Of a stretch of DNA of 64,000 nt, positions 138 to 64,000 are shown one piece after another (the first letter of the stretch is position 1; the number at the start of each line of letters is the position of its first letter). The notes under the pieces are model-generated. The model did no database searches. It was not told the origin of the DNA and worked only from the letters and a program-made list of their open reading frames with translations. Source of the DNA: a virus. Position numbers and translations under genes: made by a program. Location of the stretch: positions 42,805 through 106,804 of IMG/VR virus record IMGVR_UViG_3300037247_001314, one strand, 5' to 3'.

Positions 138-684
138 TGGCGTCCAGACGCGCAGCTTTCCATCGAGACTGATTCCAACAGCGCTTGCAAGTGACCTCGT
201 CCCAATCGTCGGTAAGCCGGCATCCGTACTGCGCCGCACACGACGCGAGCTTCTTGTTATACGGATCGCGCATATGAATCTTCCACCTCGGAGGGTTCGC
301 GCTATCGACGAAAGACTTTTCTTCCAGACGGGCGGGCTGCGTATGACAAAGCGCCTTAAGTCGCCCCAACTCTTCCAAGAGTTCGGGGTCACTACCCGCT
401 GGCCACCACATCGTGCCGTGCTCATCAGTCCAGCCGCCCTCAACATTGAGCGACTCGCCGGCAGCCTTCTCTTCTTTCGGGGCGGGTTGGTCTTCGATGA
501 CTCCCTGCTTCCGCAGCCGAGCGTTTGTTTCCTCGATACGCGTATCGGTCGCCGTAATGGCAGCGCCCCACTTCTCCACCGCCGCAGAGGTAACACCGTA
601 CTGCTCAGCGACGTCGTCAACTCGGGCACCGTTCCGCACAGCGCGGGCAGCCATCGACCTATCCCTGTTTGTGAGCATTGCCAT
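130..684 (-). CDS. HTH-containing hypothetical protein
   Basis: N-terminal GARVDDVAEQYGVTSAAVEKW is HTH-like; C-terminal CKRC. Confidence 0.55.
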   Translation of the reverse strand: MAMLTNRDRSMAARAVRNGARVDDVAEQYGVTSAAVEKWGAAITATDTRIEETNARLRKQGVIEDQPAPKEEKAAGESLNVEGGWTDEHGTMWWPAGSDPELLEELGRLKALCHTQPARLEEKSFVDSANPPRWKIHMRDPYNKKLASCAAQYGCRLTDDWDEVTCKRCWNQSRWKAARLDANA

Positions 685-898
685 CTGAAAGTCCAGACGC
701 GCACCAGGCACGAGCAGCGTGCTCATGCAGTTCCGGTGAGCTTGCATCAGTGTACGCCCGGATCTTGTCGTTCAGATCGTAAAGTGTCCAGACACTTTTC
801 CCATTCCGAAACGCCCAGCCTGCTGGCCCACCCAGCTGCCTGCCTCCTGGGAGCGTTTCCTGTTCAACGACGAGGTCAATACCAGCTGGATGATTCAC
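659..898 (-). CDS. Hypothetical protein
   Basis: Fills the gap between neighbours; GTG start inferred. Confidence 0.4.
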   Translation of the reverse strand: MNHPAGIDLVVEQETLPGGRQLGGPAGWAFRNGKSVWTLYDLNDKIRAYTDASSPELHEHAARAWCASGLSDGNAHKQG

Positions 899-1073
899 GA
901 GCTTTCTCCCCTTCTGCATGTTCAATGAGATCGGTGGACTGCGCGAGCAGTTCTGCCTTCGCCGCAGCGTCGAAGGTGTCCGGTTCTTCTGCAAGCTTCT
1001 TGAGTCGCCGAGTGACGCGCAGCATCTCCCATCGCCAATCGGTTTGCACCTTGGTGTCGTCGTCTTCTCCCAT
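876..1073 (-). CDS. Hypothetical protein
   Basis: GGAGG SD just upstream of ATG. Confidence 0.6.
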   Translation of the reverse strand: MGEDDDTKVQTDWRWEMLRVTRRLKKLAEEPDTFDAAAKAELLAQSTDLIEHAEGEKARESSSWY

Positions 1074-1083
1074 GTAGTCCTCC

Positions 1084-1692
1084 TTAGACTTCCTCGGGCT
1101 CTCCCGTCCAACTGCCGCTGAGTGCTCTTGTGGTCATTGAACCGAACGCGCGGCCCAAAGCTTGGCGGGTCGCAACAGGTGCGCTCACGGGCGAGGTGGG
1201 GGCTTCTGTCGACGCGTCTAGACTATTGGTATTATCCCTGTGGGCCAGAGCCGCGCTTGGAATATCTCCGCTGTGGTTCAGCATGTACCTCGCAATACCT
1301 TTGGAGCATTCGGTGGCCTCTACTTGAATCGCTACTGCTTCCTCGCGCGGGAGTTTGCTGGCCGCGGCAAATCGTCTCCAGACAGAAGCCAACTGCTCAA
1401 CCCCAGCAAGCACCGTAGTCATTGGGACCTTCGCGTCGCCGCCGTTGGCGCCAACGAACTTGTCTACACATTTGAGCAGCTCAGTGCTGAGCGCGTGCGC
1501 GCATTCGTGGGCTCGGTCCTGTCGTTGTGCAAAATGGCGAAAACACTTCTCGTGCGACGTGAAGACCGTTTCCTGCACCGCAATGGAATGCCCCGGCACT
1601 ATCGGCTTGCGACAAAAAGGACAGATGCCCAACGGCTGCGTGGCCAGCCCCAGCATTACCTTCTCGAAGTCGAGCCCTTTGATGAACATCAA
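1084..1692 (-). CDS. Hypothetical protein with N-terminal CxxC...HxxC zinc-finger-like motif
   Basis: CPFCRKPI...HEKC; start overlaps upstream stop. Confidence 0.6.
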   Translation of the reverse strand: MMFIKGLDFEKVMLGLATQPLGICPFCRKPIVPGHSIAVQETVFTSHEKCFRHFAQRQDRAHECAHALSTELLKCVDKFVGANGGDAKVPMTTVLAGVEQLASVWRRFAAASKLPREEAVAIQVEATECSKGIARYMLNHSGDIPSAALAHRDNTNSLDASTEAPTSPVSAPVATRQALGRAFGSMTTRALSGSWTGEPEEV

Positions 1693-2285: not shown

Positions 2286-2291
2286 AAACCC

Positions 2292-3573: not shown

Positions 3574-3575
3574 AC

Positions 3576-4896: not shown

Positions 4897-6105
4897 TTAG
4901 ATCTGAATAGTGACAGCGCGCTTCACTGGGCGGCGTTCCAGATAAGCGCTTATGAACGCCTGCGCTTGCGGAGCGACGATAGCGTTTCCGTAGGCGCACA
5001 ATCGCCCCACGCGGTTGGCAACCCCATGAGCCAACGGGAATGTGCCGGGTTCAACTGGCCGGGCTTTTCCGTCGGTGCAGGGGATCCAGTCAGCGTCTCC
5101 CCAATAGCTCTCTCCGCGTCCAAGGCTAGACAAGCGCAACCGTGCTTCGTCCCGTGCTTGGCCTTCTGCGTTCGGCTGCGTCCTCTGGCGTCGTGCGCTT
5201 GCGGTGTCGTCCAGTGCGCGGCGTGCAACGCTGCCGCCTTCAGAGCCACCCCTCCTTGCCGTCCCGGGGGTATCTGTGGCCCCGTGCCGTCGTTCGCTCG
5301 GGGTGTGGGCCAATGGGCCCGCGTCGCTCTCGTCGGCAGATCGTCGTGTGTCGCTGACCGCTCTTTCCCAACTGACCTCGTCGATGCTCCCTTGTGGTCG
5401 GTGGCGTTCGGCGTCGGCCAAGTTGCCAGCTGCGCTTGTAGGTTGAGGCTGGTCAGCGACACACCCAGCTTGAATCCCTTCGCTATCGCCGCTCTTTTTC
5501 TCGCCAGGAACTGCTCCGGCGTGCCTCCCGCTTCGCGCGCTGCAGGCGTTGCCCATGGAGCCGCTTCTTCGACCGATAGGTTGATGTTGCCGTTTGCCAC
5601 GCTCGTCGTGGGCAGACCAATAGAGTCGTTTCCTTTGGTGCGGGGCACCGAAACCACAAGCCGCGGTAACTGCCGCCCCGACGGTGTATCCGCCACTTTC
5701 CAGGTCTGTCGATACAAGGTCGAGCCAAGTTTCGCCTGGCTTACCCGCAACCTGTTCGCCAAAGATGTTGTGAGGAGCGCACTGCTCAATGAGCCAGAAC
5801 CAGGAGGGCCAGAGGTGCCGCTCGTCAGCAAACCCCGCTCCTTTGCCTGCCGCGCTGAAAGGTTGGCAAGGACAACTTCCAGTCCAGACGGGACGGTCAT
5901 CGGGCCAACCCGCGTTTCTGAGCGCCAAGCTCCAGACACCTATTCCCGCGAAGAAGTGACATTGTGTGTATCCTTTCAGCTCCGATGGAGTGACATCCTC
6001 AATGCTCCGCTCATCGACGTCACCAGGTGCGATATGTCCTGCAGCAATAAGATTGCGGAGCCATTGCGCAGCGTAAAGGTCAATCTCGTTGTAGTACGCG
6101 ACCAC
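4897..6105 (-). CDS. DNA (cytosine-5)-methyltransferase, alpha polypeptide
   Basis: Motif [41 protein letters not shown]; motif IX not evident in this frame. Confidence 0.9.
4950..5939 (-). CDS. Overlapping alternative-frame C5-MTase beta polypeptide
   Basis: 329 open codons nested in the MTase; four W[APT]TP repeats and motif-IX-like [13 protein letters not shown]. Confidence 0.7.
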
Positions 6106-8571: not shown

Positions 8572-8865
8572 CTATTTGCGTTTGCCCAAAAGGTCCTTGA
8601 AGACCTCCGTCGGCTTGAAACCGACCGTGTTGTGCGCGGCCTTCTTCCACGTCTCGCCCGTGGTTGTGCCCGGCACCTTGCCCGAGCTCGCTTTCTTGTG
8701 GCGCTTCTTAAAGGCGCCAAAGCCGCTCAACGAAAAGCGGCCTTCCGTCTTGACGCTGTCCATCGCCTGCTGCTGGAAACTCTCCAGCGCCTTGGTAGCT
8801 TCGCTCTTGGAAATGCCGGCGTCGGTCGCGATGCCCTCGATGAGGGCGGCCTTGGTGATGCTCAT
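8572..8865 (-). CDS. hup: HU-family DNA-binding protein
   Basis: MSITKAALIEGIA...SLSGFGAFKKRHKKASSGKVPGT...VGFKPTEVFKD. Confidence 0.9.
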   Translation of the reverse strand: MSITKAALIEGIATDAGISKSEATKALESFQQQAMDSVKTEGRFSLSGFGAFKKRHKKASSGKVPGTTTGETWKKAAHNTVGFKPTEVFKDLLGKRK

Positions 8866-8949
8866 ATGCTCTGCTCCTGGGTGCCCAGTGTGGGCGAGGT
8901 TTGCGCCTTGTGTACCTGTCTGGACGCGGTGTCAAGGGCTCTGTCGCAT

Positions 8950-10196: not shown

Positions 10197-10226
10197 ATCT
10201 CCAGACAGACGTCCAGACCGGCCAGG

Positions 10227-10767: not shown

Positions 10768-11254
10768 CGCCGCTCAGTTCAGCGCTCACCATGCCGCCAA
10801 AGGTTATTTTCTTTCCGCTCGCGTCATACGCATGCTCAATGATGCGCTTACCGGGGATGGCCACAAGACCGCCGCGCTTCGCTGCACCTTCGTACTGGGG
10901 AGCGGCCTCGTGTCCCGTGACGAGAGGGCCACCGTTGGCTAGCTGCGTAAGCTTATCATCCGTCACCGCCACCCCAGTGACGGGCGTAGCCTCGTCGCAC
11001 TCCTCTTTGGTGAGCACGCGGTTGAGGTATTCCTCTGCGATGCCGATGTGGCTCACCTCCATACCGAAAGATTCACCGTCTGGACGAATGCCGAGCTCCT
11101 CAACGCGCTCCTCAGCTTGGCGCACGTTGCCGGCCTGCACGATGACCACGCCGCGGAATACGTCGTTGTCCATGTAGCTCAGCCACCACAGCTGTGCGCC
11201 GGTGACGTAGCCCGCTGCCGGTTTGTCGCTACCAACGTCGATCGTTTTAGCCAT
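10751..11254 (-). CDS. Hypothetical protein
   Basis: LWWLSY...FRGVVIVQA core. Confidence 0.6.
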   Translation of the reverse strand: MAKTIDVGSDKPAAGYVTGAQLWWLSYMDNDVFRGVVIVQAGNVRQAEERVEELGIRPDGESFGMEVSHIGIAEEYLNRVLTKEECDEATPVTGVAVTDDKLTQLANGGPLVTGHEAAPQYEGAAKRGGLVAIPGKRIIEHAYDASGKKITFGGMVSAELSGGDDAE

Positions 11255-11807
11255 CGCTGATAACCTTATTGGCGTCTGGAAGTTGTTCGCCTGCGATGCC
11301 CACCACTGACTCCAACTCGTCAACAGGGATCTCAGCCCCCTGGCGGTGGTGGTCCGCATCGAACCACTGGACGGCGACAATGGGCGAGTCATACTTCAAC
11401 CAGACAATCGTCATCAGCTGTGCGCTGGTTTTGCGTTTCACGGTCGTGCCGATACGAAATCGATTACCAAAGGTTGTAAAGCTGTCAGCGTGCATGTCCC
11501 GGCGTTCGCGCGCGCGGTTGAGTTCGATGCTCGCCTCCGTGACCACTTTGTCGCTGAGGAACTTGAATCGAGGAACTTCAGTGCCGTCATCCAACACAAC
11601 CAGCTCGTTAAACTCTTCCTCGCTGCGCACCCACCACCGACCTTGCTCGTACAAACGCCCCTCTGCGGTTTGCTGACTTTCTTCCACAGCCAAATAAATA
11701 ATGACGGGGGTTCCCTCCCGCCCATTGGTAGCGTCGTCGGCACCCGCCAGCACTCGATACTGTCCGCCTTTGTAGTGTTCGTATAGACCGGCTTTCGTTT
11801 TAACCAT
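11247..11807 (-). CDS. DUF1653-like plus YodC/DUF2158-like fusion protein
   Basis: GLYEHYKGGQYRV...WVRSEEEFNE...PRF; C-terminal FRIGTTVKRKTSAQLMTI...QWFD. Confidence 0.7.
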   Translation of the reverse strand: MVKTKAGLYEHYKGGQYRVLAGADDATNGREGTPVIIYLAVEESQQTAEGRLYEQGRWWVRSEEEFNELVVLDDGTEVPRFKFLSDKVVTEASIELNRARERRDMHADSFTTFGNRFRIGTTVKRKTSAQLMTIVWLKYDSPIVAVQWFDADHHRQGAEIPVDELESVVGIAGEQLPDANKVISDG

Positions 11808-12297
11808 CGCTGCCAACTCCGCTGCGATGTGGGCCCGGGAGGCGGCTGTAATAGCAACCCCCGTCGTGGTCCTTCGCAAGTCGACAACGAAGCTCAGGCG
11901 CGTCTGGATAATGTTTTGAGCAGAGGACCTTTGTTGGAGCGGGCGGCTCAATCTTAGACTTAGCGTCGATGAGGCTGGGGGTCGTAAGGTCGATGGTCCC
12001 GTCTGTGTGTCTCACGCCTTTAAGCGCAAGGGCTAGGCCCGCGAGTGTGTTGGCTGCTGCATTTGCTCTCGGCGTATCGAAAAATGAAAACTCGACTACA
12101 GCCGCATCGCCCTCCATCTCGACAGCGTGAACGTAGCCGACGATGTCTTCGACTTTCTGGCTGAAGTCCAACGTCACGTAGAGCCTATCCACGTTGGCGC
12201 GCTCCACCATCGAAGCAATAGCCTCACGAGTGAAAACGTCCTGCCCGTCGTCACCGGCACGAATGAGTTCCATGCGATGTTTCACTCTCTCAGCCAT
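11800..12297 (-). CDS. Hypothetical protein, weakly prohead-protease-like
   Basis: VFTREAI...LDFS...IVGYV...FFDTP. Confidence 0.5.
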   Translation of the reverse strand: MAERVKHRMELIRAGDDGQDVFTREAIASMVERANVDRLYVTLDFSQKVEDIVGYVHAVEMEGDAAVVEFSFFDTPRANAAANTLAGLALALKGVRHTDGTIDLTTPSLIDAKSKIEPPAPTKVLCSKHYPDAPELRCRLAKDHDGGCYYSRLPGPHRSGVGSDG

Positions 12298-12682
12298 CAC
12301 TTTTCTCCTCGTCGGTGTCTGGAAGTTTTCGGAGGGCAATAGCTGCGTTGCGGCTATGCGAAGCGGACACCGGTAGCCCGCCAGCTGTAACAGCATCTGC
12401 GTGGTTGTCTAACCACCTCGCGCAGCGCTCCCGTTCGCCCGCCCTAATCGCTGCGCCGTCGTCAAACGCTCGCTGCACCTTTGCAGCGTTGAGCGTCTTC
12501 GTCTTTTCGCCCAGTCGCCTGAGTGTATCGTCTCGACTGGTGTTCGCATCAGCAAGGTCAGCGCGCGCTTTCGCGAGTCGCGTGAGAAGTTCTCGAGCGA
12601 AATCAGTTGAGGCGCCAGGCAAAAGGCTTTGTAGCCGCATGCGCGCTGCCTTTATCACCGCGTCCTCGTAGTCAGCTGGCAT
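12290..12682 (-). CDS. Hypothetical protein
   Basis: GERERCARWL motif, coupled ORF. Confidence 0.55.
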   Translation of the reverse strand: MPADYEDAVIKAARMRLQSLLPGASTDFARELLTRLAKARADLADANTSRDDTLRRLGEKTKTLNAAKVQRAFDDGAAIRAGERERCARWLDNHADAVTAGGLPVSASHSRNAAIALRKLPDTDEEKSDG

Positions 12683-13208
12683 CAGACTTCTCTTCGTGCT
12701 TCGCGATAGCCCATATCTCGTCGATGAGCGCATGCAGTTTAGCGGTTGCTGGGTGCCCCTCGGGGAACACCGCTTGGCGCAATAGCTGGATGCCGTCAAC
12801 GATAGCACCGTGCGGCTTGCCGTTGCGCCCCTTGTCCCTCGTGTCTTCCAGGCTACTCAACGGGGTGCCGTGCTCGTCGACGTCGCTGTAGCAACCGACG
12901 CGGATGCCCTTGACCAGCTCGGCAAAGCACTTTGGGCAGAAGTCCCACTCCCACTCGCCGAAGGCTTGAAAGAGCAGCGGGTTCTCGGGGTCATCGCGGT
13001 TGATGGCCGAAAGCCCGCTGCGTTGCCGCACTGTTGTTGTCTGGAAGCCGACACCAGGGCGGACCTTGCCTTCCTCGTCATCGTCGGGGACGGACCAGCT
13101 CTGCCCGTGCCTTGGGACGTCACGCCCGCCTCGGTCCTCCGTCCTACACTTGTCGCAGACAAGCCCGATGGTGGGGCATTGCGGGTGTTCGCGATTGAGG
13201 AGTTTCAC
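12672..13208 (-). CDS. Zinc-ribbon hypothetical protein
   Basis: CDKC...DFCPKC. Confidence 0.55.
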   Translation of the reverse strand: MKLLNREHPQCPTIGLVCDKCRTEDRGGRDVPRHGQSWSVPDDDEEGKVRPGVGFQTTTVRQRSGLSAINRDDPENPLLFQAFGEWEWDFCPKCFAELVKGIRVGCYSDVDEHGTPLSSLEDTRDKGRNGKPHGAIVDGIQLLRQAVFPEGHPATAKLHALIDEIWAIAKHEEKSDAS

Positions 13209-13429
13209 GCGGAAGCTTTCTCAAGCTGTCTTACGAAGGCACGGAAGGGGGCCGGGTCATGCCCCTTGAAGTTTGGCGACGTCTCCATCGTGTGCAGCAG
13301 CTCCTTAGCTGCCTTGAGGAAGGCACCCTTGTACGGATGACGTCGGAGCAAGTTGCGGACGGTCATCGGATAGGTCGAGGGTGCGGGGACACCGAAGGCT
13401 TCGGTGGGTAGTTCGGACGCGTGAACCAT
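13205..13429 (-). CDS. Hypothetical protein
   Basis: Short coupled ORF. Confidence 0.5.
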   Translation of the reverse strand: MVHASELPTEAFGVPAPSTYPMTVRNLLRRHPYKGAFLKAAKELLHTMETSPNFKGHDPAPFRAFVRQLEKASA

Positions 13430-13432
13430 GTC

Positions 13433-13936
13433 TCAGCCCCCAAACACACGACGGCTAAGAAGATTGCGAACGGTGGAGAGCGCGTGTGCACCTTCCGACC
13501 CCTCAGGAAAACGGCCGCCGTTCGCCACAGCATCGAGTTCAGCAAACACGTCTTTCTCGACGGTAGCGAGCTTCTCCTTAAGCTCTTTTATCCGGGCAAC
13601 AGCGGCGAGCGCTGGGTCTTCGAGGTTCTCTCCCCGACAACCCACTAAAAACAGGTCAGCGTTGGCGAGCTTGACTGCTGTGACCTGGCGATCGAGAGCA
13701 TCCCGCTCTTCGCTGGCCTCGTCTGGACGCTTCAAAACCACAGTATTGTCTGGAAACGATTTTTCGCAAAGAGCGTCTTGCTCAGCCCGGTGCGCGTTAG
13801 TCGCCGTCTGCACTTCGCCGGGGAGATCGTCAGTGCCCCAACAGTTGGGCAGCACTTTCGTCCAACAAATGCCCTTTTTCGAGACGAGCGTGGCGCCGAC
13901 AGGGGCAGCTTCGAGTTCTTCGACGGAGTAGCTCAT
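13433..13936 (-). CDS. Hypothetical protein
   Basis: ATGA overlap with upstream gene. Confidence 0.6.
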   Translation of the reverse strand: MSYSVEELEAAPVGATLVSKKGICWTKVLPNCWGTDDLPGEVQTATNAHRAEQDALCEKSFPDNTVVLKRPDEASEERDALDRQVTAVKLANADLFLVGCRGENLEDPALAAVARIKELKEKLATVEKDVFAELDAVANGGRFPEGSEGAHALSTVRNLLSRRVFGG

Positions 13937-14370
13937 GACGGCTTTCCCTTGCGTTCCAGACGGAGCTTATCATTGGAATCCCGCAGCAGGGCGTTGGACT
14001 CCTGTATGTCGTCAATCTTGGCCTGCAGGTTTCCGTTGGCCTCGCGAAGTTTATCCTTGTCGGCGCATACGCTCCGCAGGCTCTCCTCAGTACGATCGTG
14101 ATTCGCTTGGAGCGCGGCTTGTGCCTCGAAAAGCTCGTTGTACGCTTTTTGCAAATGAGAGGCTTCAGCCTCGGCGGCCCTGTCCTCGGGAGGCAACACA
14201 CCGGCTTGCTCCAGCAATGCCCCAATGTCCAGACGCTGCACCTCGTCGGCCATGCGGTCTTTGCCTAGCCGTCGGAGCTCGTCAGCTATGACGTCACGGT
14301 ACCGGTCCGCCAGCTGCTTCAGTTCGGACACCATCACGCGGGCGAGTCGTTCATTCATCTTTTCGGTCAT
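13933..14370 (-). CDS. Coiled-coil hypothetical protein
   Basis: AGGAG SD, heptad-rich C-terminus. Confidence 0.6.
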   Translation of the reverse strand: MTEKMNERLARVMVSELKQLADRYRDVIADELRRLGKDRMADEVQRLDIGALLEQAGVLPPEDRAAEAEASHLQKAYNELFEAQAALQANHDRTEESLRSVCADKDKLREANGNLQAKIDDIQESNALLRDSNDKLRLERKGKPS

Positions 14371-15028
14371 CGGATTCTCCTTGGTTGGGTGTCGCTGCTT
14401 CTACATCTTCCAGAGCTGCTTCGGCAGCTTCCAGATAGGCAGAACCCTCGTGAACCACGCCGGATACGCTCGGGGCAGCAGGTTCGGCCTCAGCCTTAGC
14501 ACTCACCCGACTCGCGGCTTTCTCCCACAACAAACGGCTGACATTGTGCCGTCGCTGACGAGAAGCCCCCGAATCTTTCTCGATAGCGTGCAAAGCCTGC
14601 TCCACCATTGCAGACTGTTCCAGACAAATCGCGAGATCGGTAGCTGCACGCTCAGGATTACGTTCAGCGTCATCGGACCGCAACACTGCGTCGACGCGGG
14701 TCACAGCTTCCGCGACTGCACCAACGAGGCCACGCTGGTTGTAGGTCATGCCCTTCAGCATATCTTCGACGTCAGCATGGGGGTGCCCAGGGCGAACGGG
14801 CACTTGCTCCGTGATGTTGCCACCAAACGTAGTCACTTGCGCGCCGTCCTCGACGAGCGAAGTCATCTGCATGCGGATAGTGCTGGCCGCGTCCGCAAAA
14901 TCGTCGGCGTGCTCTCTCTCGTACGCTGATGGGTCTGGATTCATAACTAAGCATCGCGCAAGTGAGTTAGCTAGGTATTCCAGATACTCAGCGACTTCGG
15001 CCAAAGTTTCGCGGCTTGGTTTTTTCAT
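14351..15028 (-). CDS. Hypothetical protein
   Basis: ATGA overlap; 225 aa. Confidence 0.6.
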   Translation of the reverse strand: MKKPSRETLAEVAEYLEYLANSLARCLVMNPDPSAYEREHADDFADAASTIRMQMTSLVEDGAQVTTFGGNITEQVPVRPGHPHADVEDMLKGMTYNQRGLVGAVAEAVTRVDAVLRSDDAERNPERAATDLAICLEQSAMVEQALHAIEKDSGASRQRRHNVSRLLWEKAASRVSAKAEAEPAAPSVSGVVHEGSAYLEAAEAALEDVEAATPNQGESDDRKDE

Positions 15029-15672
15029 TCGGGCTGTCCTTTGAGGTCTGCGAGATAGCCGGCCAAGCGGCGCCTCTCAACGTTTCCTAGTTCCAGACGT
15101 TGCACATCCGGCTTCGGTGGGGAAGGGGGCAATGTGCCTCCTGCCATAATAGGAACGAAGGCCCGGCCATGGCGCTTACTCAGCTCTCGAATAGCAGCCT
15201 CAACTGTCTGGAAAGCTATCTGCCCGCAAAGCATCGTCTGCCACAGCTGCCATTGCTCCTCGATGCCTTTGTTATTGCGTAGCACCACGGGCAGGCAGTC
15301 GCCCAACATCTTGAGCTCGCCCTTGTTCGGGTTGCGGCTCCATATCTCGAAGCGGCCGGGGATGCGCTCCGAGGTCTTCATGAGCGCGGTGCTGCCCTTG
15401 AACTCACGGCGCATCGCTGCGTCTGGAAAACGAAAGCCGAGCTCCAGCTTGCCATGCCTCCAGAGGACGTAGCGAAGCCGGCTCTGGCGCTGCATGTCTG
15501 GAGGTCGTGGGCGGAGGTAGATGTCCTCGTCGCCTACCGCATCGTCATACACTTGCTCTGCGACTGTCTCGCCTGCAGGGCCGTAGATTTCGTCAGCCTC
15601 GACCACGTTGCGTCTGGAATGCCACTGGCCGTGGCTCATGACGAGAATGAGTTCTTTGCCGTCGTCAGCCAT
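15025..15672 (-). CDS. Hypothetical protein
   Basis: Start placed at 15672 to avoid a long overlap. Confidence 0.55.
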   Translation of the reverse strand: MADDGKELILVMSHGQWHSRRNVVEADEIYGPAGETVAEQVYDDAVGDEDIYLRPRPPDMQRQSRLRYVLWRHGKLELGFRFPDAAMRREFKGSTALMKTSERIPGRFEIWSRNPNKGELKMLGDCLPVVLRNNKGIEEQWQLWQTMLCGQIAFQTVEAAIRELSKRHGRAFVPIMAGGTLPPSPPKPDVQRLELGNVERRRLAGYLADLKGQPE

Positions 15673-16147
15673 CAAAGCCCCTTCGTCTACCCCACTCGTC
15701 GCGTGGGTCGCGCATCTCTTCCAGTTGTCGGGCAAAATCATCTGCGCGAGCTCGCTGCTCGTCGTGCTTTCTAACCAAGCTAATGACGGCAGCGCGCCTG
15801 CGCTCGCTGATAGGCCATTCGCCCACATCGCGAACGGTAGAGGCCACGACAGCCTCCGACACAGGACTGAGCCGTGCGATGCAGGTTTCCAGTCGCCGAC
15901 GTTCACGCGTAGCCCAGTTCAGCTGCGCTTTAACAGCTTTGCGCTCCTCATCGGCTTGAGTGTAGAGCGCGCGGTGAACGAGCGCAGTTTTCTCGCTCAG
16001 GTGACTGTCCTTCAACTCGTCGCGCTCTTTGCATACATTCTTGTAGAGCTGCTCCATCTCCGCTGCGTCTTCGCGTATCTGAGCGGCCTCCTCTTTCGAT
16101 ATTGAAGAATCGCATGTCGGGCAACAGCCTTGGTCGTCGTCAGTCAT
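15665..16147 (-). CDS. Hypothetical protein (CxxC plus coiled coil)
   Basis: CPTC at N-terminus. Confidence 0.5.
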   Translation of the reverse strand: MTDDDQGCCPTCDSSISKEEAAQIREDAAEMEQLYKNVCKERDELKDSHLSEKTALVHRALYTQADEERKAVKAQLNWATRERRRLETCIARLSPVSEAVVASTVRDVGEWPISERRRAAVISLVRKHDEQRARADDFARQLEEMRDPRDEWGRRRGFDG

Positions 16148-48777: not shown

Positions 48778-49839
48778 TCACAAAAGCAATGTGCCTGGTG
48801 AAAATGGCTGGGCGTGTGCGCGATAGGCATCGAGTTCGGCACGGCTGTAGTCGCCGGGGTCGCCCCGCGGCAGAAAAACTAAACGGACATCCATGAATGC
48901 GGAGAGCTGACCCGCGGCTTGAATCATCGACTCCCAAGCCCCGCGGGGCTCCTTTGGTGTCGGGCCATCCCACATGAAATCGACCGCGCGCACACCAGCG
49001 TCGACGAGTCGCGCGATTTGCTGCGGTTGCAGTTGTTTGCCGAACGTCGCGACGGCTGAAGGGCCCGCGCGGATGCACGACGTCGGGCCCTCGGTGATGC
49101 ACACTCTCGGGTAGGCCGCGGCCTGTTCCAGGTTGAGCACCACATCGCCCGAACCGAAATACCAGATGCCGCCGCGCTCTTGGGACGGGTTGAGCGTCTT
49201 GCGAAACTTGTCCTTGCCGACAGTGCCGTCTTTGCGGGTGAACGGACGAGCCACGTGCTCGTCCTCGTCCCACATCGCTCTTGCCTGCCAATAGATACAT
49301 TGCCCACGCTCCCAAACAGGAAACACCAGCCGATTAGCCAGCCATCCAGACGCACACCACCCAAGGCCAAAAAGCCTCGCATCTTCCAGCGTAATCTGTC
49401 TTTTGCTAAGGTAAGGCATACTGCCCGCGATAGCAAGCGTTCCATCTGGAAGACCTGTCGGGCATACTGCCGGGGGCGTTTTTTGTCCAGAGAGGAACGA
49501 AGTTTCCGGGAGTTCCGTGGGTGAACCTAAAGCATGGCTCACAAACTCGGCGATGCGCTGGATAGCCTGGCTGGTGTTCAAGCCCTCCAACCACTTGACC
49601 AGACCGAGCGCGCGGCCGGCGCCGGCAATGGCGCGCTTCTTACCAAGGGCATCCACCAGATACTTCTCGCAGCGGAAGCAGCGCCAAAACCCCGTCGACG
49701 TGTTGATACTGAGCTTTGCGAGTCCGCATTTCGGGCAGCCCAGAAGCAGTTCGTTGCGCCCCTCACGCTCAGCCGCGAACCCCTGCAGGTACCGCTCGAC
49801 GTCAAACCGCTGCAGCAGAAGGTCAAGGTTTTCTTTCAC
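48778..49839 (-). CDS. DNA primase (zinc finger plus TOPRIM)
   Basis: CPKC...WRCFRC, RLVFPV, WQAR, ITEGPTS, MWDG, DPGD; GTG start inferred. Confidence 0.85.
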   Translation of the reverse strand: MKENLDLLLQRFDVERYLQGFAAEREGRNELLLGCPKCGLAKLSINTSTGFWRCFRCEKYLVDALGKKRAIAGAGRALGLVKWLEGLNTSQAIQRIAEFVSHALGSPTELPETSFLSGQKTPPAVCPTGLPDGTLAIAGSMPYLSKRQITLEDARLFGLGWCASGWLANRLVFPVWERGQCIYWQARAMWDEDEHVARPFTRKDGTVGKDKFRKTLNPSQERGGIWYFGSGDVVLNLEQAAAYPRVCITEGPTSCIRAGPSAVATFGKQLQPQQIARLVDAGVRAVDFMWDGPTPKEPRGAWESMIQAAGQLSAFMDVRLVFLPRGDPGDYSRAELDAYRAHAQPFSPGTLLL

Positions 49840-49990: not shown

Positions 49991-51460
49991 CTACACCCCC
50001 TGCTTCTGCTGCCAGCTATTTACGCCACTAGAATAACCAAGCGGGTGCGTCGTCTGCACCGTCGTCGTCTGTAATGTGGCTGGCGCAGGCATCTCACCAC
50101 CGATTTTCATCCGTTGGAAATCACAAGGCACCAACATCTCAACGTCAGCCGCATTGTCCCGCAGAAGCTCAACATAAAGCCTCATGACCCCTTGACGCCG
50201 TTCTTCACGCGTCTGGTTGATGGAGCCCACCATGTCAGCAATGCGCACCTTCGCGTAGCAGTCGGCGATGTGTTTGCTCTTGAGGATATCCTGGATGTCG
50301 TCGAAGTCGTCGTCCTTCGGGCGCTGCACTTGGCTCGCCGTCCAAACCGCGTAGCCGCGGTTAGCCAGCGTCTTGCAGTCCTGGAATGAAGCCTTCTGAC
50401 TGTCGGTGTCGCTTTTGTACCCGCCCGGTCGCGGTCGACCGTCGAGGAGGTCGCAGTAGTCGATGATGATGACGTCGGGCTTCCACCCGTGCGCCTGTTT
50501 AAGCTCGCGCATCTCATTCCAGATGTGCGTCATGTTGAAGTCCCACTCGTCAGTGAACGCGCGCACGACACACTGCTGCCTGAGCATCTGCATCTCTTGA
50601 TAGGCCAGCGCATAACGGGGGGCGTCGATCTCTCCTCGACGGACGTTCGTGTAGAGCTCCTCAGTGAAGACGGTATCGTAGCGATCGGCGATGTACTCGC
50701 CCGACCCTTCGAGCGGGATGTGCAGCACCTTTCGGTTGTACGCGCGCAGGGCCACCGCGCCCTTGTTAACGAGGAACGTCGTCTTGCCCGCCTTCGGCCT
50801 GGATAGCCACACGCCGAGAAATCCCGGGTGAGCTCCGCCGTCGAGCGTCTTGTCTAGGAGCGGAATGCCCGTACCCGTGTGTCTGCCCTGCATCTCCAGC
50901 GACTGACGACGGATGTGCCGGTCAGGAAGCTCGTCCATAAGCCATTGCCGGTCTGGGCTTTCCCACGCGACTGAATGCAGCGAGTCCATACGCGTTTGCA
51001 TAAGGTCGTACGCGTCGTCGACCTTGCCCGCGTTGAACAAGTCGCGCGAGTCAATGAACGCGTCACGAAAAACCTGGCGCTTGATAAAATCCATCGTCTT
51101 GTCGCGTAACCAGGGCTCGTCAGTAACTGGGCGCTCGCGGACACCATTGAGCACAGCCGCAAAGATGGGCTGGATGTTGGCATCGAGGGTGCGCACCTGG
51201 TCGAGGACCACGAGCAGCGTCGGGAACGTTCCGTACGTTTCCGAGTACCACTGCGCGAAACCAAAGGCCCACGCCATCGCCTCATTCTGAAAAAACTTAG
51301 GCTGAAGGTACTTGGCCACCTGTCTGGCGAAGGCGCTGTCCTCTAGGAGAAGCCGGATGAGCATGCCCTGGAACACAACGCCAAATGCGCTACCGAGGTC
51401 TTCTGCTGCCGGCGTCGCTTGCGGGCGCTGCTGTATGAGAGTGACGGCGCGCCTATCCAT
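49991..51460 (-). CDS. DnaB-like (SF4) replicative helicase
   Basis: TGIPLLD, RPKAGKTT, LEGS, IIIDYCD, WTASQ. Confidence 0.9.
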   Translation of the reverse strand: MDRRAVTLIQQRPQATPAAEDLGSAFGVVFQGMLIRLLLEDSAFARQVAKYLQPKFFQNEAMAWAFGFAQWYSETYGTFPTLLVVLDQVRTLDANIQPIFAAVLNGVRERPVTDEPWLRDKTMDFIKRQVFRDAFIDSRDLFNAGKVDDAYDLMQTRMDSLHSVAWESPDRQWLMDELPDRHIRRQSLEMQGRHTGTGIPLLDKTLDGGAHPGFLGVWLSRPKAGKTTFLVNKGAVALRAYNRKVLHIPLEGSGEYIADRYDTVFTEELYTNVRRGEIDAPRYALAYQEMQMLRQQCVVRAFTDEWDFNMTHIWNEMRELKQAHGWKPDVIIIDYCDLLDGRPRPGGYKSDTDSQKASFQDCKTLANRGYAVWTASQVQRPKDDDFDDIQDILKSKHIADCYAKVRIADMVGSINQTREERRQGVMRLYVELLRDNAADVEMLVPCDFQRMKIGGEMPAPATLQTTTVQTTHPLGYSSGVNSWQQKQGV

Positions 51461-52073: not shown

Positions 52074-52327
52074 CCGCGCTCGAACCCAGTCCCCTCGACG
52101 AGGAAAAGACGCGCAACAGCGTGCTTAGGAATCATCTCCTGGCGGTTGTGGGGGTCGGGCGGAAGTTCAACGCCGTAGCTGTAACGGTCGACCCACAAGA
52201 GTTGACAGCGCAGGAACTTGATGGGCGTCGTCGCAGACACCTTTTCGTCGCCGACGAAAACGATGCCGATTTGCTTTCCTTTGAGCTTGTCCAAGAACCC
52301 AGATTCCGGCCCATTGTTTTTACCCAC
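52070..52327 (-). CDS. Hfq/Sm-like RNA-binding protein
   Basis: FLDKLK...LRCQLLWVDRYS...EMIPKHAV parallels Hfq FLNALR...LQGQIESFDQF...QMVYKHAI. Confidence 0.6.
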   Translation of the reverse strand: MGKNNGPESGFLDKLKGKQIGIVFVGDEKVSATTPIKFLRCQLLWVDRYSYGVELPPDPHNRQEMIPKHAVARLFLVEGTGFERG

Positions 52328-52709
52328 GTCGTGCGCTCCGTTTCTTCAAGTCAGCTTGATGTTGGGCCTTGAGCCGTTGCAGCTGGGCAATGGCGTTGTC
52401 AATCTCATCAAGCCAAAGCCTGTCATCCTTGAAGATGGGTGCGCCCACCGCGGACCCACCAGCCACTTGCTCGTCGACAACGTAACCCGTCTTCTCGACA
52501 TTGCGCTGGCTGTTGTACGCGTGCACAACTTGCATGAGCGCGTCGACGCCGGTGGGCCAAGGAAGTCCTCGCACCAGCGTCGGAGCGTGGAACACGAGGT
52601 ACGTGCGGTCACTGCCCTGCAGAAACCTAATCAGATGTTCGGGGTCGCTGATAGCAACCGCTTCCTGTGCTCGGGCTAGAGCGCGTGCATCAACGGTAGG
52701 CATCACCAT
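52320..52709 (-). CDS. Hypothetical protein
   Basis: GGAGG SD. Confidence 0.6.
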   Translation of the reverse strand: MVMPTVDARALARAQEAVAISDPEHLIRFLQGSDRTYLVFHAPTLVRGLPWPTGVDALMQVVHAYNSQRNVEKTGYVVDEQVAGGSAVGAPIFKDDRLWLDEIDNAIAQLQRLKAQHQADLKKRSARRG

Positions 52710-52797: not shown

Positions 52798-55398
52798 TCA
52801 ACGCGGCCGGTTTGCAACCCAGGCGCCAAAAAAAGATGCGTCCTCAAGAACCTCAACGTTAAATGTAGCTTCCTTCCAGAACACACTCAACCGCTCAAGG
52901 CTGTGATCCATAAGGGTTCGGTGGTGTCTATCCGAGAAATCAACGAAGAGCGCGCGGGTCTTACCAGGCACTGCGGTGCACGCTCGATACGCAGCTTGGA
53001 TGAGAGGGACTTCCGCTTTCTGGCCTGGGCAGTAAACACAGGCGGCAGTGTTTGGCAGGTCAGTGCCCTCTCCGACCATGCTCGTGCCGATTAGCACCTG
53101 GATGGCCGAGCTCTCTGCAAAGGTGTCGATGATGTTTTGACAAATGTGTGCTGGCCGATTGGTGCTCACAAACTCCACAGCCCGAAACTGCCTACCTGCT
53201 GGCGTCGGGTACTGATGCTTAAGTCGATCCAGAATAGTGTTGCCTTGCTCTTTTGTCCCGACGAGGACGAGCACCTTGTGCCCGTGGTGGGTGAGCACCT
53301 GTGTGGCCCATGCAGCGAGGTCAGTGCGATATTCATGTTGATAGATGCCGTTCTTGCCACAACCCGTCTGGAACGTGGGGCCGCCCTTCGCCCGAGGACC
53401 GTTGACCGGTAAATAGCAAACGTCGGTGGGCACGAGGTAGCCACGCTCGACGAGTTCTTCGGCCGTGACCTTGTAGATGGTCTTTGAAAGAACGGCATGC
53501 ATCGCAAGTGCGTCCTCGCCCGAGCGAAAGAACGTCCCCGTCATGCCGTAGCGATAGTAGATGCTCGGACACTTGGCGACGAGCTCGTGGTAGGTCTTCG
53601 CGGCGCTGTTGGAGACTTTGACCCCTTCTGCGAAATAGTTGTGGTCGTGCTCTACTTCGAGATCGTAAACCGCAGCACACGTCGACGGGAAAATCTCGAC
53701 GCTGAGCACCTCACCCGCAACCACTCGGCTGCCGCCTCGACTTGATTCGCGGGAACACGAATCACCGCCCAACCGATCGCCAGAAGAAAAGCATCCTTCC
53801 TGTCGTCGACATCCCGCCGATTCTGATGGGACGACCCGTCGATTTCCACCGCAACTTTCCGAGAGAGCAGCGCGAAATCGAGGCTGTACCAAGTCGCTCC
53901 CTCGCCCTTTTTGTTCCCGGTCTTCACCACCACCTCGCGCGCGAAACCCAGTGGCTTGAGGATCTTCCAAGCTTTTCGCTCTGACAAAGTTGGGCCCGAA
54001 CCTTTGCCTCCTGTGCCACGCCCGTAAGCCACCATTCGCCCGTCCGCTATCGCTCGCTGGATTCCCGCCGTCATTCGCGCACGACTGGTGGGGGAACGCG
54101 TTTGATTTTTCTCGCGCATGCGCTCGCTGAGTTGCTGTCGATAACTCTGATTCTCGGAGCGGACCTTCATCGCGCGTCGATGCACCGCGGGGTTCGCAAA
54201 AGGATTCCGCCCCGAACACGTCAGCACGTGTCCCCCCAGCGATTTGAGCTTCACCTCGACGCCGCAAATAGGGCACGGCTTGGTTTTCTTCTTGGGGCCC
54301 TGGCAAACCCTCTCGTGCAGGAGAAACGGACCGCGCCGCTTGATTTTCCGGCCGCACTTCGAGCACGTGAACGATGCTCCCAACTCGAAGATCACCGGCG
54401 CGTTTTTTACCATCTGAGGTGAAGACTTCGTGCTCACTTGTAACCTCCATCGTTCCTACCGTCGTGCCAATACGCAACATCGTTGGTGGCGGCGTGCGCT
54501 TCCAGACGCGCGCAACCTTACGGGGAACTACCCCTTCCGCCGTATCAGCAAATACTTCATCACCCGCCCGCAGGCATTGAATCTCTCGTGGACCAGTAGG
54601 TGTAGTTACCAGCGTGGTGGGACTAAAGCAATGGTGAAACTCGTCGATGAAGAGCATGTCCCGCGTCGCGAAAAACTCGGGGGGAAGGTCTCTTGCCGTC
54701 GCTGCCGTGCAAATGACAACACGACAGTGCACCTCGCCACGCCAGTTGCTCGCGCCAACTAGGTGCCCAACGTAGTTCTCACCGAAAAATCCTTTGAACG
54801 CGCGCACGGTTTGTTTGACGATGTTTGTCGTCGGAGCAATCCAAATAGCGGGCAGCGCTAGCCGCCGTTGGATTTCAATACCTGTACGAGTTTTTCCCGA
54901 GCGTGGAGGCATATCGAGAACGCCACGTCCTTCTCGGAGCGCAGCCTCCACAGCAGCTAGCTGGTAGTCGCGGTCGACGACAGGTGTGTGGAGGTCGGGA
55001 AGGCCGTCAAGCGGAACCTCTCTGCTGTCGTCGATAGAGAACGCAAAGCCATAGCGCTGGCAAACCCACTGGCAAAGGTCGAGCAAACCCGTTGGGGTTA
55101 TCCCTGGTCCTTGAGCGGGAAAGCGCGTGAGATGGATCCAGCCGTCCCAGTAGTCTTCGCCGATGTACGCTTCAGGAGGCTTCCAACCCTCCGTCTGCTG
55201 GAGCGCAACGTCAGACGGGTATCTGGTGTGGAAAGCGAGAAGCTGCTGCAAGTAGGGAGGGGCTCCGTAAATCCGACAGAAGGTGTTGCCTACTTCGAAA
55301 ATCGTTTCAGAAAAACCGTCCGCAAGGATGGGCGCTGGAGCCCCGAGGCCGAAGGCCGAGGGTGCTCCTAGCGCTTGTTGGTTTCCTGCCCAGTTCAT
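52798..55398 (-). CDS. SF2 (UvsW-like) DExH helicase containing an intein
   Basis: RDYQ, PPRSGKT, DEFHH|intein|SAA, GMTGT, EGTDLP, QAAYR. Confidence 0.92.
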   Translation of the reverse strand: MNWAGNQQALGAPSAFGLGAPAPILADGFSETIFEVGNTFCRIYGAPPYLQQLLAFHTRYPSDVALQQTEGWKPPEAYIGEDYWDGWIHLTRFPAQGPGITPTGLLDLCQWVCQRYGFAFSIDDSREVPLDGLPDLHTPVVDRDYQLAAVEAALREGRGVLDMPPRSGKTRTGIEIQRRLALPAIWIAPTTNIVKQTVRAFKGFFGENYVGHLVGASNWRGEVHCRVVICTAATARDLPPEFFATRDMLFIDEFHHCFSPTTLVTTPTGPREIQCLRAGDEVFADTAEGVVPRKVARVWKRTPPPTMLRIGTTVGTMEVTSEHEVFTSDGKKRAGDLRVGSIVHVLEVRPENQAARSVSPAREGLPGPQEENQAVPYLRRRGEAQIAGGTRADVFGAESFCEPRGASTRDEGPLRESELSTATQRAHAREKSNAFPHQSCANDGGNPASDSGRANGGLRAWHRRQRFGPNFVRAKSLEDPQATGFRARGGGEDREQKGRGSDLVQPRFRAALSESCGGNRRVVPSESAGCRRQEGCFSSGDRLGGDSCSRESSRGGSRVVAGEVLSVEIFPSTCAAVYDLEVEHDHNYFAEGVKVSNSAAKTYHELVAKCPSIYYRYGMTGTFFRSGEDALAMHAVLSKTIYKVTAEELVERGYLVPTDVCYLPVNGPRAKGGPTFQTGCGKNGIYQHEYRTDLAAWATQVLTHHGHKVLVLVGTKEQGNTILDRLKHQYPTPAGRQFRAVEFVSTNRPAHICQNIIDTFAESSAIQVLIGTSMVGEGTDLPNTAACVYCPGQKAEVPLIQAAYRACTAVPGKTRALFVDFSDRHHRTLMDHSLERLSVFWKEATFNVEVLEDASFFGAWVANRPR
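53608..54630 (-). mobile_element. Intein (341 aa) inserted just after helicase motif II
   Basis: Block A CFSPTTLV, block B VTSEHEV, block F VYDLEV, block G NYFAEGVKVSN followed by Ser+1. Confidence 0.92.
53652..54437 (-). CDS. Zinc-finger plus DUF559/Vsr-like endonuclease in an alternative frame inside the intein
   Basis: GGAGG-N6-GTG start; CSKC...H...C, CPIC...H...C; PTLSERK...YSLDFA...VAVEIDGSSH...DDRKDAFL...GWAVIRV. Confidence 0.85.
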   Translation of the reverse strand: MSTKSSPQMVKNAPVIFELGASFTCSKCGRKIKRRGPFLLHERVCQGPKKKTKPCPICGVEVKLKSLGGHVLTCSGRNPFANPAVHRRAMKVRSENQSYRQQLSERMREKNQTRSPTSRARMTAGIQRAIADGRMVAYGRGTGGKGSGPTLSERKAWKILKPLGFAREVVVKTGNKKGEGATWYSLDFALLSRKVAVEIDGSSHQNRRDVDDRKDAFLLAIGWAVIRVPANQVEAAAEWLRVRCSASRFSRRRVLRFTISK

Positions 55399-59761: not shown

Positions 59762-59768
59762 ATTGGCC

Positions 59769-62165: not shown

Positions 62166-62938
62166 CAGACGTTTACCCTCCGTGCATCAAAACCGTCGAT
62201 CCACTGGTTCCTTAGATTGTTGAAGTTTTCTCGCATAGTGATCCAAAACCCTACGCGGCACGACGCTGTGCCGTAGGGAACGAACCTCCCACCGGGGCCG
62301 ACCACAACTTCCTGCAACAATGTCCAGACAGGCGTGGCCTCCGTGCCAGAGTTGTAGTAGGCGCGGACAGTGTCGCGATCGACGGTGGGTCCGTTTTTGG
62401 TCGGGATAACGTCAATCCTAACTTGCACCCACGTGCTCACTCCGATGTTGACTAAATCTGTATAGAGAGGCGACCCGAGTGTTCCACCGTTCGTTCCGTT
62501 CACCGCGAAGCCGAGAAACCCATTATCGCTATTCGCATTTCCGCCAGTCCGACCCCCCATCCCCATGCAGAGGCCAGAATGGTAGTTGTTGCTGCTGCTC
62601 GAACCCCCGAGACCACCTTTGACGTGGATACCAACCGCGCACTTTTCATTGTTGTTCGTAGCGGAGCGGATCCAGGCACGCACTGAGATGGCAGCCGTAT
62701 CGGGATATTGAAAGAAATCGGGGTGTGCGATCTCCTCAAGATTGTACGTCAATGTTGTGTTGTGGACTCCATTCGTATTCGACTGCGCGTAGCGTCGACA
62801 ATCCGCGCCGTTCAGAGTGAGCGGACTACCGAGCGAAGCGTTTATTTGCTGCGTCCCCTCGTCACCACCTATGAACGCTGGGGGACCGCTGTTTACAAAC
62901 TTAACCGTATCCCAATCTACAAACGCCATCAGGTCCAC
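62165..62938 (-). CDS. Virion structural protein (beta-sandwich-like)
   Basis: Beta-rich, in the baseplate cluster. Confidence 0.55.
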   Translation of the reverse strand: MDLMAFVDWDTVKFVNSGPPAFIGGDEGTQQINASLGSPLTLNGADCRRYAQSNTNGVHNTTLTYNLEEIAHPDFFQYPDTAAISVRAWIRSATNNNEKCAVGIHVKGGLGGSSSSNNYHSGLCMGMGGRTGGNANSDNGFLGFAVNGTNGGTLGSPLYTDLVNIGVSTWVQVRIDVIPTKNGPTVDRDTVRAYYNSGTEATPVWTLLQEVVVGPGGRFVPYGTASCRVGFWITMRENFNNLRNQWIDGFDARRVNV

Positions 62939-63621
62939 CCACTCGCTGTTTCAAAGCTCTCTGTCTGTTGTGTATCAGGAGCATCGAAGTCAGGCGTAGG
63001 CACGACGATGCCAGTCCACCCCGATGTCGCCTCGAAGCTGTCCAAGAACTGTGTGCTTGGCGCGTCAAAATCGGGCTCACAGAACCCGGTCCACCCCTCA
63101 CACGCCTCAAAGCTGTCCACCTGCTGTGTGTCGGGGGACTCGAAGTCCGCCACTGGAGGCAGCGCACCGAGGAGCGCGGCCACCGTATTCAAACTGCGGG
63201 CGCCCGTCCGCATTCTTGGAGGAAATGCCCGGCGAAGTTCAAACACTTTCGAGCGCCAGCTCCTCGCGGCCACAACGAGTCCTTGGGGCAGCGATCCCGA
63301 GGAGGCTCCCTGTATGACCTCGACAGTGAAGTCCGCGCCGATGGGCATCGGGGGCATGACTACGCGAAGGACGTTGCCCGCAAGAGGCACGGGCCGGTTC
63401 CCTTGCCCACGTGAACCGCTGTAGCACTCGAACGTCAAGGCCTCACGCGTGATGAGGACTTGAGCGGGCTCGTTCTTGAACGTGCCGATGAGGAACACCT
63501 CGTTCCCCCCATCGTCGTCCACCACCGACGGCTGAATAGAATCCACGGCCACCGTGGTGGTCGAGAAATCCTCAAGCGGCGGCGGCACGAAGCCCGTGAA
63601 GATATCAGACATGAGACACAC
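62929..63621 (-). CDS. Virion protein with an IPT/TIG-like domain and three C-terminal repeats
   Basis: SIQPSVVDDDGGNEVFLIG; three copies of DF[ED]xPxTQxxxSFExxxGWT. Confidence 0.6.
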   Translation of the reverse strand: MCLMSDIFTGFVPPPLEDFSTTTVAVDSIQPSVVDDDGGNEVFLIGTFKNEPAQVLITREALTFECYSGSRGQGNRPVPLAGNVLRVVMPPMPIGADFTVEVIQGASSGSLPQGLVVAARSWRSKVFELRRAFPPRMRTGARSLNTVAALLGALPPVADFESPDTQQVDSFEACEGWTGFCEPDFDAPSTQFLDSFEATSGWTGIVVPTPDFDAPDTQQTESFETASGWT

Positions 63622-63690
63622 CGTAGCGCATCCGCGTGAAGCCGGAAGGGGCTACGCGTCCAGACAGTCGGGCGACATTCAGACAAGCCA

Positions 63691-64000
63691 TTAGGTGAGT
63701 GTCACGTTGCCCGCTGTTGTCCGCGGGAGTTGGTCGTCTAAGATAATGACGTCGATAGCTGGCAGCGTGAGCGTGGTATTCGTGACCCCCGAAACGCTCA
63801 TGATGATTTCGATAAGCCGGTTGCGGAGCACATCTCCTGAAATACCAAGATTGTTAATGTACTCCAGTATCGCGTCAGAAACCTCTGTCTGGACGGAAAG
63901 CTCGTCGAAACCTTCAGCAATGACGAGGTTCGCGGTCACCTGCTGAATGAGTATCTGGGGAACGGCAGTTAGCACTCGCACGCCGCCCGCGCGCCAGCCT
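63691..64000 (-). CDS. Baseplate J-like protein, C-terminal part
   Basis: RAGGVRV...AILEYINNLGISGDVLRNRLIEIIMSVSGVTN. Confidence 0.75.
   Translation of the reverse strand, partial: GWRAGGVRVLTAVPQILIQQVTANLVIAEGFDELSVQTEVSDAILEYINNLGISGDVLRNRLIEIIMSVSGVTNTTLTLPAIDVIILDDQLPRTTAGNVTLT

Follow-up and report, generated by a model that had tools for sequence, protein, structure and literature searches.

A dispersed seven-letter word, TCCAGAC, maintained in a lineage of uncultured ∼110-kb phages

The 64,000-bp stretch of DNA analyzed here (the window) comprises bases 42,805 to 106,804 of a single 106,804-bp IMG/VR virus record, IMGVR_UViG_3300037247_001314, which is ∼99% complete according to CheckV and has a G+C content (GC) of 58.5%. 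Gene calls on the full genome of this phage, hereafter G000, give 141 genes, 137 of which lie on the minus strand, and a coding density of 94%. Throughout the window, from position 143 to 63893, the DNA is dotted with the word TCCAGAC or its reverse complement GTCTGGA: an exact count gives 124 copies, 62 with TCCAGAC on the plus strand and 62 with it on the minus strand, while dinucleotide shuffles of the window give 8.5 ± 3.0 (maximum 17). An earlier note on this DNA, made from the letters alone, had reported about 120 copies, about 60 per orientation, where about 8 were expected, usually followed by a purine and recurring about every 500 bp. All of this is borne out. Each position that it named, from 143 to 63887 and including 8918, 20592, and 33045, is a true site; a purine follows the word at 115 of 124 sites in the window and at 191 of the 204 sites in the whole 106.8-kb genome (103 and 101 by strand); and the mean spacing in the window is ∼520 bp. 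The spacing is Poisson-like (coefficient of variation ∼1), with 8 close pairs observed and 11.4 expected.

The genes of the window include a full set for replication and recombination. A DnaG/T7-gp4-type DNA primase is encoded at 48778 to 49839 on the minus strand and combines an N-terminal CxxC...CxxC zinc ribbon with a TOPRIM/RNA-polymerase domain (phrog_47, E = 5e-32; matches to DnaG in PDB 5vaz and to zinc ribbons). It adjoins a DnaB-type replicative helicase (49991 to 51460, minus strand; Pfam DnaB_C), the gene of which contains no copy of the word. A family-A DNA polymerase (PolA; 44659 to 46617), an SSB (42728 to 44092), a sliding clamp (34387 to 35484), a RecA-like protein (41480 to 42712), SbcC (37898 to 39811), and SbcD (39808 to 40788) are also encoded in the window.

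The word extends slightly beyond its seven letters. The preceding base is G or T (K) at 154 of 204 sites, and the extended form K-TCCAGAC-R (KTCCAGACR) occurs 146 times in the genome versus 6 times for the reversed control. Among one-letter neighbors, TCCAGAT is 5-fold and TCCAGAA 3-fold over expectation, while TCCAGAG stands at 0.8-fold. Tolerance is thus confined to the last position, which makes TCCAGA plus a base other than G the core. Some copies are in promoter spacers or 13 to 36 nt upstream of start codons. One of them (8918 to 8924, minus strand), which the earlier note had placed near a −35-like hexamer upstream of the HU gene (8572 to 8865), does fall within a sigma70-like promoter (TTGACA ...), in its spacer, ∼50 nt upstream of that gene; word copies thus also occupy regulatory DNA. 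An intergenic tandem pair of words, 12 bp apart, lies 3 to 15 nt upstream of a start codon (10200 to 10218, plus strand), and similar pairs are found beyond the window at genome positions 19147/19159 and 40519/40532.

The excess of the word does not follow from what the genes encode. On our own gene calls, from which all coding nulls were computed, the coding strands hold 90 copies of TCCAGAC and 88 of GTCTGGA, i.e., genes contain 178 of the 204 genome copies, with the word in both orientations despite the one-sided gene map. When synonymous codons are shuffled within genes, keeping proteins and codon usage, 21.6 ± 3.7 copies of TCCAGAC and 12.7 ± 3.1 of GTCTGGA are obtained; when the order of codons is shuffled, the values are 9.2 and 6.4. 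Thus, the excess persists against a codon-preserving null (178 observed vs. ∼34 expected), which excludes a codon or dipeptide artefact and agrees with the earlier view that the word is not an amino-acid motif. The difference between the two nulls implies that the peptides themselves are bent towards the word. That view had also relied on the use of several codon phases, and five of the six phase/orientation classes are indeed used, in the peptide contexts VQT/LQT/FQT/IQT, xPD, RLE/RLD/CLD, xSG, and VW; the SR phase, counted by the note among those used, has hardly any copies (2 sites). The 6,259 nt of non-coding DNA hold 26 sites, one per 240 nt, versus one per 567 nt in genes, a 2.3-fold higher density, and the highly conserved genes for capsid, RecA, and DnaB have zero copies. 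A promoter or RNA signal is excluded because both orientations occur although the genes lie on one strand. Assembly artefact is excluded by a sister phage, G001, which was assembled independently from another metagenome and has 197 copies. In this phage lineage, TCCAGAC is a genuine and strong signal at the level of DNA that evolution has maintained, and the description of it as a dispersed and orientation-neutral tag in the DNA itself is supported.

G001 (110,147 bp) has a PolA 79% identical to that of G000. The aligned genes of the two phages are 65% identical at the nucleotide level, and their third codon positions are 43% identical. Nevertheless, the two phages share the same word at the same density (197 copies vs. 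11 for the control in G001), which shows it to be a property of the lineage and not of one assembly. Of the 135 sites of G000 that fall in 74 codon-aligned ortholog pairs, 45 (33%) are kept in place in G001, against a background of 6 to 10% for any 7-mer. The earlier note had asked whether synonymous changes spare the sites in related phages, and identity at third codon positions is indeed 0.52 inside the word versus 0.38 in its flanks. Even with two thirds of the sites turned over, the density is unchanged; thus, both position and overall density appear to be maintained. The largest gap between words in the window, 2.9 kb (15619 to 18538), contains small genes mostly without orthologs in G001; those without orthologs lie at 16140 to 17972 and include ThyX (17340 to 17972), the closest family matches of which are in G415 and G002. 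Beyond the window, genome positions 11135 to 15488 (4.35 kb), likewise without orthologs in G001, hold 0 copies where 8.3 are expected (P = 2e-4). These two blocks, which combine the lack of the word with the lack of G001 orthologs, are probably recently imported genes, and the one at genome 11135 to 15488 likely encodes tail or host-range functions.

The two phages belong to a large family of uncultured phages of ∼100 to 113 kb identified by PolA searches, with further relatives in Logan/ENA at 77%, 64%, and 60% PolA identity. No near relative was found among GenBank phages, the best PolA match being ∼30% identical; a single-sequence PolA scan of IMG/VR gave no match, and in a scan of metagenome contigs with generic PolA patterns every match was at most 33% identical. 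We surveyed 31 family loci from the primase alignment and six further complete genomes, in which G and L identifiers denote relatives or searched loci. Several relatives carry one-letter variants of the word, at 200 to 470 copies per ∼110 kb. The TCCAGAA dialect is found in G004, G412, G413, L313, L333, and L323, with 336 copies of TCCAGAA in G413 and 105 copies of TTTCTGGAA in G004 (1.3 expected). The TCCGGA-based dialect TCCGGAA is found in G411 and G414; G411 has 155 copies of the palindrome TTCCGGAA where 5.7 are expected, and G414 also retains TCCAGA at about twice expectation (128 vs. 66). G415 and L337 have the weaker words GCTGGA and TGCGGA, while G002, G003, G005, and ∼15 loci are word-free. 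In sequence logos, all dialects share TC-Y-GGA on one strand, and lineage-specific information lies only 5′ of this core. In a tree of primase and DnaB, a quick tree with support from the SH-aLRT (Shimodaira–Hasegawa-like approximate likelihood ratio test) only, word-bearing lineages (GC 0.51 to 0.67) occur at many places in the main clade, with word-free ones between them. On this pattern, the simplest reading is that the word was present in the ancestor of the family and has been lost several times.

Many 6-bp palindromes are almost fully purged from genomes of the family (G000, G001, G004, G411 to G415, G002, and G005). In G004, observed versus expected counts are 0/103 for GGATCC, 0/97 for GAGCTC, and 0/91 for CTCGAG, and in G413 GATC occurs 0 times where 1333 are expected; avoidance in G000 is milder (CTCGAG 24/123, GATC 372/809). 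Each genome has its own avoidance list, which implies different host restriction repertoires. Close genome pairs with different lists share a word, and word-bearing lineages cover GC 0.51 to 0.67 and many parts of the primase and DnaB tree; together, these observations argue for a reader carried by the phage. TCCGGA itself has 364 copies in G411, 319 in G414, and 0 in G001, G002, G005, and G415, and the change of dialect from TCCGGA to TCCAGA may have been an escape from TCCGGA-cutting restriction enzymes.

None of the candidate readers that the earlier note had put forward travels with the word. Ten relatives, G001 among them, were compared, and none has a homolog of HU, proposed there as a nucleoid or shielding protein. 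A 323-aa protein (32041 to 33012) is patchy across the relatives, and the DUF2924/H1-like protein (46668 to 47825) is present in the word-free G002 but not in G411, the genome in which the word is densest. The suggestion of a self-mark for a methyltransferase likewise fails as a family-wide idea: the D12-class N6-adenine DNA methyltransferase (29982 to 30806, minus strand) and the C5 methyltransferase-like gene (4897 to 6105, minus strand; Pfam match limited to positions 66 to 165 of 324) are confined to G000 and G001 and were rejected as family-wide readers, and the five complete word-bearing genomes G411, G412, G413, G414, and G004 had no match to PF02086, PF01555, or PF00145, i.e., to these D12, N6/N4, and C5 families. 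Gene 130 (52320 to 52709) seemed to track the word; however, ortholog queries show it to be a core gene present in word-free members too. Presence/absence clustering of all open reading frames within ±10 kb of the primase gave no accessory gene that tracks the word. With the accessory candidates failing, any phage-encoded reader must be a core protein with lineage-differing specificity. Column-wise association between residues and word is equally good for every core protein and is thus confounded by phylogeny. Altogether, we conclude that the word is a selected signal in the DNA, passed on with the phage lineage. It seems to be read across the whole genome, most likely by a core phage protein and possibly by the phage's own DNA primase.

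That the primase, or indeed any particular protein, reads the word is what we infer, and we put forward only tentatively, from the sequence comparisons, that the words are preferred start sites of this DnaG/T7-gp4-type enzyme. Selection would then keep K-TCCAGAC-R at ∼1 copy per kb per strand. Read as a template, the word would be 5′-Y-G-T-C-T-G-G-A-3′; the zinc-binding domain would bind its constant 3′ end (Y-GGA) as the recognition or “cryptic” element, and the lineage-specific 5′ letters would template the primer, e.g., pppAGAC-R, or pppCAGAC-R under a Twinkle-like reading. A site of 7 to 9 nt would turn up too seldom in random sequence; enrichment of the genome for it on both strands would make up for this and let either strand be the lagging-strand template in a phage whose genes include RecA and SbcCD and whose replication probably proceeds by recombination. 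A primase is a sequence-reading enzyme of single strands that needs sites on both strands at about kilobase spacing, and we count this for the proposal. The phage has such an enzyme, with zinc ribbon and TOPRIM domain, beside DnaB and together with clamp, SSB, PolA, RecA, and SbcCD; the gene is core, present in every family member, and its CxxC...CxxC, EGP, and DxD motifs are invariant in the alignment. The density per strand (1 per 0.3 to 1 kb) is on the scale of Okazaki fragments. The layout of a constant 3′ TC-Y-GGA and variable 5′ letters would suit CTG-type or Twinkle-type (GGA) primase sites, and is also compatible with any asymmetric reader. The T7-gp4-type primase Twinkle of Arabidopsis has the template site 5′-(G/C)GGA-3′, in which “GA” is cryptic (PMC5737085), and the site of the NrS-1 primase is 8 nt long (PMC8718748).

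A good deal weighs against this proposal. Word-free relatives keep the same primase, and nothing ties the primase specifically to the word: the association of its residues with the word is no better than for DnaB, PolA, or other core proteins, and its second zinc knuckle, WHCWVC, is identical in the word-bearing G004 and the word-free G002. No switch of orientation as expected for lagging strands was found in seven genomes, in which skew is weak or absent (p 0.02 to 0.94) and cumulative orientation skew forms no V shape; the missing bias would be excusable only if forks run both ways. In a control, the known T7 primase sites are not enriched in the T7 genome. Known DnaG-type sites are 3 to 5 nt long, as are the T7 site 5′-(G/T)(G/T)GTC-3′ and the Escherichia coli site 5′-CTG-3′, and the model thus needs an unusually long site, 7 to 9 nt and ∼13-fold enriched. 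The phage word may resemble these sites in its constant Y-GGA 3′ element, which also contains CTG, and in its variable 5′ letters, but differs in lacking the lagging-strand bias. Finally, a protein that binds double-stranded DNA (dsDNA) would explain the palindromic dialect and the word copies within promoter spacers equally well.

Sites for such a dsDNA-binding phage protein, be it architectural, shielding, anti-silencing, or a global regulator, are in essence what the earlier note had proposed, and would account for the orientation neutrality of the word, its intergenic enrichment, the copies upstream of start codons, and the few tandem pairs 12 to 13 bp apart, in addition to the palindromic dialect TTCCGGAA. 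This explanation is nevertheless unlikely. Close pairs are not in excess over Poisson spacing, and the flanks of TCCGGA are independent of one another in G411, giving no sign of dimer symmetry; moreover, conservation of HU, the 323-aa protein, and the DUF2924/H1-like protein does not follow the word, and the accessory genes near the replication module do not track its presence. Stoperators of cluster A mycobacteriophages are 13 bp long, intergenic, oriented with transcription, and present in 20 to 35 copies. They resemble the phage word as many copies of one asymmetric site across a phage genome, and they are read by a phage protein; by contrast, the phage word has ∼200 copies of 7 to 9 bp, mostly in genes and in both orientations. 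Alternatively, the word could be a Chi-like tag of self-identity, at which a translocating helicase-nuclease or recombination machine, either encoded by the phage or the RecBCD/AddAB of the host, switches from degradation to protection or recombination, so that word-rich DNA would count as “self.” Dense copies on both strands, dialects, and the lack of the word in imported DNA would suit a self mark, and the phage encodes RecA-like, SbcC, and SbcD proteins. Chi is likewise an over-represented, short, and asymmetric word that marks DNA for a recombination or nuclease machine, phages enriched in the Chi of their hosts are documented, Chi-rich lambdoid phages among them (PMC3784561, PMC12315714), and CTGG, which is part of the phage word, is also part of Chi of E. 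coli and Pseudomonas (PMC5959072). We consider this explanation rather doubtful. No RecBCD/AddAB-like gene was recognized in the phage, in which two large proteins (798 and 738 aa) have weak matches to tail or baseplate proteins. Chi functions in a single orientation, is usually skewed, is specified by the host, and occurs ∼1 per 5 kb; the phage word is unskewed (103 vs. 101 copies) without domain structure, ∼10-fold denser at 1 per 0.5 kb, and inherited with the phage lineage, and its recurrence across GC 0.51 to 0.65 is awkward for a host-specific Chi.

A signal of the host, i.e., an uptake-sequence, Chi, or HIP1-type (highly iterated palindrome 1) word mimicked by the phage or acquired through host repair and recombination, is suggested by the likeness to the DNA uptake sequences (DUS) of Neisseriaceae, which have dialects, and the uptake signal sequences (USS) of Pasteurellaceae. 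Those words also occur at ∼1 per kb, on both strands, and in any frame within genes, they shape peptides, and their one-letter dialects follow phylogeny. Moreover, the Neisseria DUS core is CCGTCTGAA, and CGTCTGGAA equals it with one inserted G. However, DUS and USS belong to the chromosomes of competent bacteria, in which a pilus or uptake receptor reads them and transformation spreads them, while the carrier here is a lytic-type phage lineage with its own replisome, and accumulation of uptake sequences is not known from lytic phages. A comparable bias was seen in no bacterial genome among the triplet-scan matches listed from a collection of 185,579 species, which are chance or tandem-repeat loci, or among 401 Acidobacteriota, both tests being incomplete; the five most suggestive genomes reach only 1.25 to 3.8 times the reversed control, and the Acidobacteriota, in which the unpublished genomes G162, G034, and G059 have ordinary counts on which our conclusion does not rest, have at most 0.34 sites per kb versus 1.9 per kb in the phage. 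Together with the constancy of the word across GC 0.51 to 0.65 and across restriction-avoidance profiles, this makes a host signal quite unlikely, and a host-borne reader is disfavored. A methyltransferase-linked word that accumulates by short-patch-repair bias or through protective methylation, as HIP1 (GCGATCGC) of cyanobacteria might suggest, is very improbable. HIP1, too, is hyper-abundant in genomes that otherwise purge palindromes, and the palindromic dialect of G411 and G414 looks similar to it; G000 and G001 encode D12 and C5 methyltransferases, the change from TCCGGA to TCTGGA is that expected from deamination of 5-methylcytosine, and TCCGGAC is depleted in both phages. Sites of the MmeI/BREX (bacteriophage exclusion) type are asymmetric with an A next to last, as is the word. 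However, HIP1 is palindromic and tied to cognate methyltransferases, while TCCAGAC is asymmetric, with only one dialect palindromic, and most word-bearing phages, including the five genomes named above, have no such enzyme. The depletion of TCCGGA is part of the general palindrome purge, and one-mismatch neighbors of the word are only ∼25% depleted and cannot feed a 13-fold excess; deamination of TCCGGA as source of the word was rejected, the pool being far too small. Methylation targets are normally not enriched, and were the word an MmeI-type TCCRAC restriction target, avoidance would be expected and not the 13- to 15-fold enrichment seen, true palindromic targets being purged from the same genomes.

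Our literature searches found no relevant publications on this word or on genome-wide words of phage lineages. Bacterial chromosomes are known to carry Chi, uptake sequences, KOPS (FtsK orienting polar sequences), and HIP1; we found no description of a word that belongs to a phage lineage, has dialects, and rewrites ∼200 sites in genes. In a broad and rather speculative picture, environmental phages of ∼110 kb would carry an inherited signature word (TCCRGA with flanks) that lets a core machine tell phage from host DNA, either because the primase starts only on its own word or because the word acts as a Chi-like switch of a nuclease or recombinase; the word would drift by single letters, possibly because this evades host restriction enzymes that cut TCCGGA, and lineages would lose it time and again as the reader becomes less strict. 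If the primase were the reader, phages could hard-wire a priming map, and perhaps self-specific replication, into their genomes; a nuclease or recombination switch would instead amount to a viral code of self and non-self. Several natural variants of the word and matching variants of proteins are available, making this a directly testable protein-DNA pair. The word also offers a practical marker for distinguishing native from recently imported DNA and for grouping uncultured phages.

The remaining named genes of the window are an intein-bearing ResIII/DEAD helicase (52798 to 55398, minus strand; Intein_splicing and Hint_2 matches), an amidase (33592 to 34383), and an ADP-ribosylglycohydrolase (30903 to 31961, minus strand; Pfam E = 7e-59). 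Inteins are also present in several PolA relatives of the family, according to Pfam matches. The ADP-ribosylglycohydrolase is conserved in G001, G412, and G413, and its nearest named cellular homologs, mostly from Myxococcota, are ∼45% identical, too distant for a host call. Sequence of the phage was found, as contigs, in one marine-sediment DNA run, which may be its source, and a run look-up listed no RNA runs that hold it.

Other repeated words were observed in the family and beyond it. G000 and G001, the sole family carriers of the D12 and C5-like methyltransferases, also show the mildest avoidance of GATC and CTCGAG. The palindrome GCTCGAGC is 5- to 6-fold over-represented (50 and 42 copies vs. 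8.5 expected) in the TCCRGA-free G005, G002, L316, and L317, and CTCGAG is wholly purged in sister genomes. Strand-specific repeated words with a regulatory look are GCTTGAGG in L323 (2+25), TAGCCCTG in L337 (0+11), and TAGGCGGG in L336 (0+6). Two unrelated PolA-bearing viral contigs carry hyper-abundant words as well: L018 has 28+21 copies of CGACAAT(C) within 9.7 kb, and L083 has 46 copies of GGTGTGG within 21.8 kb. The phenomenon thus extends beyond this phage family. In the contig L117, which was among the tandem-repeat matches of the host scan and comes from a metagenome-assembled genome labeled “Xanthomonas sp.” unrelated to the phage, both ends (1 to 260 and 5730 to 5918) carry a 44-bp tandem repeat of GTCCAGAC-AA-GTCTGGAC hairpins that contains the same 7-mer.

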